From Escherichia coli (GTDB lineage: Bacteria; Pseudomonadota; Gammaproteobacteria; Enterobacterales; Enterobacteriaceae), in the NCBI RefSeq assembly GCF_003334255.1, contig NZ_QOWU01000065.1: a stretch of DNA of 23,863 bases, one strand, 5' to 3'. Of the stretch, positions 14,921 through 16,796 are shown one piece after another. Below the pieces are notes generated by a model. It was not told the origin of the DNA. It saw only the letters and a program-made list of their open reading frames with translations, and made no database searches. The translations under genes were made by a program, and so were the position numbers. Every line of letters begins with the position of its first letter. Position 1 is the first letter of the stretch.

Positions 14921-15122
14921 GGAATCGTCCTTGATCGATAGGAATTAAAATCCCCAAAAGACTAAAAAAAACACCACAAAACGGATATTACTTCTACATC
15001 CTTTGCGCACCATATAAACGAAAATGACGATTAAACAGGATGACTCTGATTGATACAGAGTATAAATGGCGATTTTTTGCTCCGTTCCCCAAAAAATGGA
15101 CACAACTTCACCTCTGCGGCTC

Positions 15123-16310
15123 TCAGCCGCACACCCGCTGTCGTGCCAGTGGCTCATGCATCATGACCAGCTCTGCCAGTCGGTAGCCACGCTTCAGGCC
15201 CGTAAAACGCATCTGACTCCCGCACAGAATGCACTTCAGCGGGTCAACCTTCAGTAACCGCTGATACATCCCTCTCCACCTGATTTGCATCGCCGTTTTT
15301 CGCACCGTCTCCGTTATGGCATACACAACCTCTTCCAGTAACGGGCGCTTCACCGGACTCAGGAACCCGTAGTACCTCACCATCCGGAATCCCTTATCCG
15401 CCACATGCCAGGAGAACCTTTCCATGAACTCATCACCGCTCATCACAAGGTATTCTTCCCGTTTTGTCCGGTGACTGTTGTAACGCAGGCCAGTTTCATC
15501 CTGACCTGCATAATGCTCCAGACGACTCATCGGAACCGGCGGCTTTTTGAGGTAAGAGCCAGAGTACACCGCCACGTGGGTGGCGTTATCCATTACCCTG
15601 GAGACGTTGACATTCCAGCCCCGGCAGTGATGTGTGTCCAGGAGGCGATTCCAGTCCCGTTTGCTGTTTCCTTCCGCGGTCAGCTCATCCGGTATCACCA
15701 GGTCAGGGTATTTTCGTGACAGTAACCGAGTTATCCGGTAACGCCACATACTCATCACCTTACGGGCGTAAAAATGAAGATTTTTCCAGGTGTGACCTGA
15801 TGTCACACCACCGGCAGTTGTCGATAAATGGATATGCGGATGCCACTGCTGGTCTCGTCCCCAGGTGTGGATTACCGTGAATATTCCCGGCTACACATCT
15901 GCCTGGCGGCAGATTTCCAGTATCACATCCGCTGCGATATGGCTCATCTCTGCCAGTAACCACCGGTTGTGGAACACCAGGGACCAGTACTGGCACGGAA
16001 GCGTGAACACAATATGCTGCCACGGGCAGTCGGGGACCAGACTCAGCAGATACTGTATCCACTGTGCGCCTGCTTTTACTCCGCAGTGCGGACAGGAACG
16101 GCTTTTACACCGGAAGCAGACCTTCTTTGTGTGGCAACAGTCCGGTGACGAACAGCACCATTGCGTGTACCCCATCAGCGTGGTCCCACAGGCCATGATT
16201 TTTGTCACTGACTCAATCACCACCGGACGCACGGAACCTTCCGGCTGTTTCTCCAGCCAGTTAAGCCAGCGGTTACCATGCTGAAAAATGTCGGCAAAAC
16301 GGGGAAGCAT
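15123..16310 (-). pseudogene. IS91-family transposase interrupted by a single in-frame TAG at 15891-15893
   Basis: The N-terminal ORF (Cys-rich Zn-binding region ...CGTTLMGYTQWCCSSPDCCH...CPHCG...) ends at a TAG; the same frame continues PGIFTVIHTWGRDQQWHPHIHLSTTAGG...RYYGFLS...CILCGSQMRF, i.e. the catalytic domain. I translated codons 15807-15893 by hand to confirm the frame is shared. Confidence 0.8.
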
Positions 16311-16313
16311 GAA

Positions 16314-16661
16314 TTACGCAGGGGGAAGATGTGAGGTGCCGCACAGCGGACAGATAAAGGGATGTATCGTGCACACGGACAGAAAATTTTTCCATGACAT
16401 GGGGAGCATGGTGACATTACCGTCGGGCTCACCGACTATCCATACGGTTGTTTCATAATTGCCGCTGGCATCTTCTTCAAACAGGCACGGAATATCTTTC
16501 TCCATACAGTAATCGGCAGCGCTGGCGAAGTCGGGAAAAAACAGCCCGGCTTCATTATCTGTTCCTCCGGAGCAGGGGATCACCCGCCATCGCAACAGGG
16601 GAGCTGAGCGGGTGGATTGTCTGCTGGATTTTTGTTTGCGAGGTTTAGCTGAACGGGCCAT
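16314..16661 (-). CDS. Small protein encoded upstream of the IS91-family transposase (orf121-like accessory ORF)
   Basis: 115-aa ORF ending 3 nt before the transposase start, same strand; its position matches the small upstream ORF that I recall IS91 carrying. Confidence 0.45.
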   Translation of the reverse strand: MARSAKPRKQKSSRQSTRSAPLLRWRVIPCSGGTDNEAGLFFPDFASAADYCMEKDIPCLFEEDASGNYETTVWIVGEPDGNVTMLPMSWKNFLSVCTIHPFICPLCGTSHLPPA

Positions 16662-16796
16662 ATAACTACCTGAAAGACAATGATATTGTCTGTTTTTATA
16701 ACGGTAATATCAGGTCATGACAAGCCGCAGCCGCCAGGCTGCCTACTCGAACACGCCCCTTGTCCGATGCAGACACGGGGCGTGATGAGGCAGGCA

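Follow-up and report, generated by a model that had tools for sequence, protein, structure and literature searches.

IS91 inserts with its oriIS end beside a tetranucleotide target, CTTG or GTTC, is cleaved after CTCG at its terIS end and produces no target duplication (PMC13181058). Canonical IS91 (X17114; represented here by the copy on plasmid pSvP1_F, TnpA WP_000937614.1) is 1830 bp long and encodes a transposase of 395 aa. Its tnpA gene is preceded by a small ORF for Orf121 (121 aa), the stop codon of which overlaps the tnpA start in the sequence TGATG (PMC13181058). A promoter with a TATAAA -10 box, Porf121, has been placed in the terIS region of IS91, and isoforms of the element are defined by a nucleotide identity of at least 95% to X17114 along its full length and by a complete TnpA with at least 95% identity (PMC13181058). 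IS801, IS1294 and the ISCR elements have the HUH-Y2 architecture, the rolling-circle logic and the distinct ori and ter ends in common with IS91 (PMC13181058). They differ in lacking an orf121-type gene and in a terIS ending with GTTC, and ISCR elements are typically accompanied by co-mobilised resistance genes. On pSvP1_F (L016, positions 2120-2145), the canonical IS91 terIS (...CCTACTCG) directly abuts the ATCGATAGG oriIS of another, non-identical copy of the family. Such a head-to-tail arrangement would be expected if the second element had used the CTCG of the first as its insertion site.

The window analyzed here comprises 23,863 nucleotides of Escherichia coli DNA and carries a myo-inositol utilisation island. 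The gap at 14921-16796 between the gene of an MFS transporter (14920..13754, minus strand) and iolC (18734..16797, minus strand) contains an IS91-family element with an interrupted transposase gene. The preliminary description had assigned the entire gap to the element. Only 14934-16749 (1816 bp) belong to it, and the remainder is the original 60-bp spacer between the two genes. We regard it as close to certain that a single IS91-family copy inserted simply into the iolC-MFS spacer and then lost its transposase to a TAG codon at Glu140; none of the observations speaks against this reading. The features of the locus are listed in Table 1.

Table 1. Features of the element and its insertion site, in window coordinates.
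Feature	Position	Strand	Remarks
Whole IS91-family element	14934..16749	genes on -	1816 bp, ATCGATAGG...CCTACTCG; limits from homology to plasmid copies and from the Salmonella L011/L012 empty site
CTTG target tetranucleotide adjoining the oriIS end	14930..14933	+	Salmonella empty site reads CTTG-AACAC
oriIS end, non-coding, downstream of tnpA	14934..15122		aligned to oriIS of canonical IS91 and of the pM172-1.1 copy
tnpA pseudogene	15123..16310	-	396-codon frame (395 aa plus terminal stop), one internal stop
Catalytic tyrosine pair Y249...Y253 (YSGSY)	15552..15566	-	F250S in between
HUH motif HPHIH	15828..15842	-	codons 157-161; H159 and H161 invariant
Amber TAG, codon 140	15891..15893	-	ancestral codon GAG (Glu)
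Zn-binding N-terminal domain	15999..16262	-	codons 17-104; Pfam PF14319 Zn_Tnp_IS91, E 1.5e-18
115-aa upstream ORF	16314..16661	-	divergent homologue of IS91 Orf121
Likely -10 box TATAAA of a Porf121-type promoter, terIS region	16695..16700	-	putative; conserved with canonical IS91
terIS	16727..16749		palindrome GCAGCC-GCCA-GGCTGC, then CTACTCG; CTCG cleavage tetranucleotide at 16746-16749
Remainder of the native iolC-MFS spacer	16750..16796	-	same as in the 60-bp spacer of Salmonella L011/L012

The limits of the element were set by applying the published end rules of IS91 (PMC13181058) to a homology alignment. In this alignment, homology to the copies on plasmids pM172-1.1 and pGF131-A starts at ATCGATAGG (14934) and ends at ...GGCTGCCTACTCG(A). 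The junctions in the window thus defined, CTTG followed by ATCGATAGG...CCTACTCG followed by AACAC, agree with what has been published on the target and the terIS cleavage of IS91 (PMC13181058). CTTG or GTTC directly precedes ATCGATAGG in three independent copies. At the element a target-site duplication is absent, and the tetranucleotide target abuts oriIS, as is typical for the IS91 family. Both ends align with those of canonical IS91 and are distinct from each other. The oriIS end contains a subterminal palindrome at 15043-15061, and the terIS hairpin (16727-16742) is followed by CTACTCG. Both hairpins appear on single-strand folding, with energies that are not unusual in comparison with shuffled sequences (z from -0.5 to -1.2). 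Folding would by itself be weak evidence for the ends, the assignment of which is carried by the alignment to IS91.

The transposase of canonical IS91 is 95% identical to that of the window element, of the same length and alignable without gaps. Both elements start with the same oriIS sequence, end with the terIS palindrome and CTCG, use CTTG or GTTC as target without duplication and have a small ORF in front of tnpA. At the DNA level, however, tnpA is only about 92% identical (90 differences in 1188 nt), and the alignment at about 92% identity covers only 82% of the length, the unaligned part being the upstream ORF. Moreover, only the window element has a nonsense codon in its transposase gene, which leaves TnpA incomplete. 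By the 95% criterion the element is therefore an IS91-family member and a close sibling of IS91, not an isoform. Its closest full-length relative is the plasmid-borne element of pM172-1.1 (TnpA WP_072855076.1, upstream ORF WP_072855075.1), which is 92.3% identical from end to end. This copy has the same ends, an adjoining GTTC target, the same type of 115-aa ORF and a non-overlapping junction (TGA-TTC-ATG). It differs in an intact transposase with GAG at codon 140, and the tnpA genes are separated by 96 nucleotide and 17 amino-acid differences. IS801, IS1294 and ISCR transposases are more remote (approximately 35-40% identical protein), although distant family members share the invariant Cys/His, HUH and Tyr columns with the window tnpA. 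The CTCG end of the window element and the absence of co-mobilised resistance genes also set it apart from these elements.

The upstream ORF had been described as orf121-like, which a pairwise comparison bears out: the 115-aa product is 28% identical to Orf121 (E 1e-10), and the two share the N-terminus MARSAKPRK and a C-terminal CPxCGT motif. No NCBIfam family was matched by the 115-aa ORF, so that the pairwise comparison carries the link to Orf121. Its length and its junction with tnpA are different from those of orf121. The TAA stop is followed by TTC and then by the ATG of tnpA, without a stop-start overlap. The intact pM172-1.1 copy is arranged in the same way, which makes the non-overlapping junction a property of this lineage and not a sign of decay. 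The protein is identical in all RefSeq copies (WP_000124074.1). The combination of an upstream ORF with 28% identity to Orf121 and a transposase with 95% identity suggests a sub-lineage of IS91 that is mosaic and has another putative regulator.

The tnpA pseudogene is a single frame with TAG (CTA on the plus strand) as its sole internal stop, located between the Zn-binding domain and the HUH/Y2 domain, as the preliminary description had stated. For scoring of domains and families, Glu was placed at codon 140. The product repaired in this way matched the NCBIfam model NF033538 (IS91 family transposase) with 278 bits at a cut-off of 125 (E 1e-82). Besides the N-terminal Zn-binding domain, it contains the catalytic Y2_Tnp domain characteristic of these transposases (Pfam PF04986, E 2e-37, residues 142-319), which lies downstream of TAG. 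In an alignment of 31 family members, spanning 32-96% identity, the invariant columns of the Zn-binding domain are all retained (C41, C53, C58, H60, C68, C73 and C76). The HPHIH columns and the tyrosines of the Y-x3-Y motif, Y249 and Y253, are likewise invariant, which is the HUH/two-tyrosine signature of the IS91 family. The two parts are not normally separate genes, as homologues have one continuous gene for 395 aa.

Apart from the amber codon the transposase had been considered intact. This holds for the reading frame and for the catalytic motifs, but need not hold for activity, because three replacements specific for this branch (Y228H, R229C and F250S) fall on conserved columns of the 31-member alignment. 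At column 250 all other aligned members have a hydrophobic residue. Judged by these positions, the amber codon may be neither the first nor the only disabling lesion. According to the list of open reading frames, the next possible start after TAG is a GTG at codon 169. It lies past the HUH motif, so that a re-initiated C-terminal product would be without this motif.

Codon 140 is GAG in the intact pM172-1.1 gene and GAA in pGF131-A, and canonical IS91 has Glu at this position as well. Given the Glu codons of the relatives, TAG was produced by one G-to-T transversion on the coding strand. A single-base difference is also all that a sequencing or assembly error would need to create TAG in a transposase gene that is really intact. 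However, the same CTA was found on the plus strand in all 14 independent E. coli assemblies checked, obtained in several countries and on several sequencing platforms. These are seven complete RefSeq genomes and seven further assemblies including ED1a (CU928162). A stop common to all 14 is not a sequencing error, and we assign practically no probability to an artefact. In all seven complete genomes the RefSeq annotation (PGAP) labels the gene as IS91 family transposase, pseudo, internal stop. The locus is thus an ordinary IS pseudogene which is already known and annotated.

A second nonsense codon was found further downstream, at tnpA codon 285 (window position 15458), where GAA is changed to TAA (C to A on the plus strand). 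It is present in nine of the 14 assemblies, namely in all seven RefSeq genomes together with L009 and L010 (loci L001, L009, L010 and L019-L024), and is absent from the window, ED1a and three other assemblies. In order to place the first stop in time, changes were polarized against pM172-1.1 and canonical IS91. The branch of the window element has 34 synonymous and 11 non-synonymous changes, with the stop counted among the latter. On the branches of the two intact relatives the corresponding numbers are 41/6 and 32/9. With approximately 268 synonymous and 917 non-synonymous sites, dN/dS of the window branch is about 0.09. As this is similar to the intact relatives, purifying selection acted during nearly all of the branch, and the knockout is a late event. 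The inactivation had been called recent. With respect to the element's own branch this can be maintained, whereas within E. coli it is not recent: the stop is fixed in every carrier examined and precedes the second nonsense codon. By these comparisons the stop is late on the branch but antedates the spread of the island within E. coli. An intact parent was looked for in two ways, without success. A collection of 15 billion proteins did not contain the repaired protein with either E140 or Q140, and in plasmid DNA neither half of the element was matched more closely than at 92-95% identity.

One could also regard the amber codon as functional, either by programmed or suppressor-dependent read-through or by domestication, with the 139-aa Zn-finger fragment and Orf115 kept as regulators. 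In favour of this, IS91 transposition is known to be regulated by Orf121 (PMC13181058), any residue inserted at position 140 would probably be tolerated because the column is variable, and no copy shows a change in Orf115 or in the 139-aa N-terminal ORF. The copies differ, however, by only 0-2 bases, so that unchanged ORFs are uninformative with respect to selection. A functional stop is furthermore at odds with the Glu codon at position 140 in all relatives, with the nonsense codon added downstream in derived lineages and with the presence of one copy at one site per genome. We consider a functional amber codon very improbable, if slightly less so than an artefact. Instead, the nonsense codon at position 140 and the single copy per genome at one site only argue for an inactive native copy, and we infer a loss of activity on this basis. 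Low-level natural read-through of UAG is possible. As its ends look intact, the copy could in addition be mobilized in trans by a related, plasmid-borne IS91 transposase.

To define the insertion site, the joined flanks were searched in 5426 complete E. coli genomes. The search matched only seven carriers, each as two halves, and yielded no empty site. All seven genomes that have the junction carry the element in a single copy. The empty site was reached by way of the protein cluster of the MFS transporter, which is rich in sequences from Salmonella enterica. The cluster (90% identity) of this 388-aa protein also lists many IolC proteins of 645 aa, with IolC as its representative, a composition that seems to stem from the clustering of the database and not from biology. 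In S. enterica contigs L011/L012, 60 bp without an element separate iolC from the MFS gene. The Salmonella spacer, ...GGGGCGTGTTCAAGGACGATTCCATG, corresponds to CTTGAACAC on the plus strand of the window and represents the exact empty site. Removal of 14934-16749 from the window restores the Salmonella sequence base for base. The flanks are contiguous in Salmonella, with identities of 99.4% over 5.2 kb and 98.9% over 4.0 kb. The gene order is also the same in a second E. coli iol island of about 79% identity, in which the spacer measures 64 bp and is free of the element.

These comparisons bear on the earlier proposal that the element served as a vehicle for neighbouring GC-rich segments. A flank, either iolC-iolD and the genes beyond terIS or the MFS side, would then have been brought along by one-ended transposition. 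In 1-10% of events IS91 does run past terIS and takes the adjoining DNA along (PMC13181058), and the island contains several other insertion sequences. The flanks in Salmonella L011/L012 are nevertheless colinear and contiguous at 98.9-99.4% identity and are recreated exactly by deletion of the element, the element terminates at the canonical CTCG, and the divergent second island shows the same gene order without it. A secondary precise excision, which would also leave an empty site, is not known for IS91. Delivery of a flank by the element hence has hardly any probability left, and the proposal is refuted. The exact empty site together with the contiguous flanks shows a simple insertion into a pre-existing island. 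On the strength of the aligned flanks, neither side was delivered by one-ended transposition, and the GC-rich segments beside the element are the island's own iol genes.

Over its whole length (window positions 1-23863), the myo-inositol island shares approximately 99% identity with its Salmonella enterica counterpart. The core genomes of E. coli and Salmonella are generally understood to be far less alike. This similarity points to a recent horizontal transfer of the island. Within E. coli, the window is colinear with strain Ecol_AZ146 at 99.87% identity and differs from ED1a at two of 9167 bases. The iol cluster of ED1a has been published and was drawn with transposase and insertion-element genes (PMC9430895). 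In E. coli the island is located beside a truncated epmB. A frameshifted IS110-family pseudogene lies at its left edge (below position ~350), and an IS66 element lies at its right edge just past the end of the window. Further insertion sequences are an IS200/IS605 tnpA at 4434-4916 (minus strand) and a frameshifted IS200/IS605 element at approximately 8834-9255 (plus strand).

The MFS gene itself is intact and differs from its Salmonella counterpart by three amino acids; a literature search for the Salmonella gene, STM4428, gave nothing. The part of the native spacer on the MFS side of the element (14921-14933, 13 bp) contains the ribosome-binding site of the MFS gene (CAAGGACGATTCCATG). On the iolC side, the spacer forms a hairpin of CACGCCCC and GGGGCGTG at 16752-16784, with a stem of 8 bp and no T-run, which is conserved in Salmonella. 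It could be an mRNA-stabilizing or attenuating structure between iolC and the MFS gene.

In the native arrangement the distance to iolC is 60 bp and the spacer contains only this hairpin; the MFS gene was likely co-transcribed with iolC. In the window, its ATG is located 13 bp from the end of the element, from which we infer that transcription of the MFS gene comes either from inside the element or across it. The element genes point in the same direction as iolC and the MFS gene. The MFS promoter had been expected in or next to the element end. A route from within or through the element is in keeping with this expectation, but a sigma-70-like site at the element end is missing: in a consensus scan of 14700-17000, none was found on either strand, with 1.8 expected by chance. 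Otherwise the scan returned only terminator-like hairpins, all of them weak and one identical with the oriIS palindrome.

A broader reading would combine two proposals. According to the first, the element and its plasmid relatives form a distinct IS91 sub-lineage, in which the Orf121 gene was swapped for, or evolved into, the gene of the 115-aa protein without a stop-start overlap. According to the second, the dead copy uncouples the MFS gene in E. coli from the IolR-controlled promoter of iolC and drives it from IS promoters. That both apply together seems rather unlikely to us. If the sub-lineage proposal were true, both the expression of the transposase and the recognition of terIS would have to be controlled differently.

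Based on the empty site and the comparison with intact relatives, we arrive at the following history for the simple insertion and its decay. An IS91-family element entered the 60-bp iolC-MFS spacer of the myo-inositol utilisation island, with its oriIS end joined 3' of CTTG and with correct termination at the CTCG of terIS, and nothing was duplicated or co-mobilised. At a later stage, a G-to-T change converted Glu140 (GAG) to TAG. Translation would now end after the Zn-binding domain, with HUH falling between the stop and the next possible start. As a consequence, no catalytically competent transposase would be made, and the copy would be stranded at its site. The second nonsense codon represents further decay in derived E. 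coli lineages.

The importance of the locus hardly goes beyond housekeeping. Within the IS91 family it is a clean and datable example, with an exact insertion at CTTG, termination at CTCG and a step from one to two nonsense codons. For the E. coli myo-inositol island the element can be used to mark lineages, and the nonsense at codon 285, which shows the stepwise decay, is a useful marker for a sub-lineage. The arrival of the iol genes should not be explained by the element. Studies of MFS expression in ED1a-like strains should take into account that 1.8 kb of IS sequence lie between the MFS gene and iolC.
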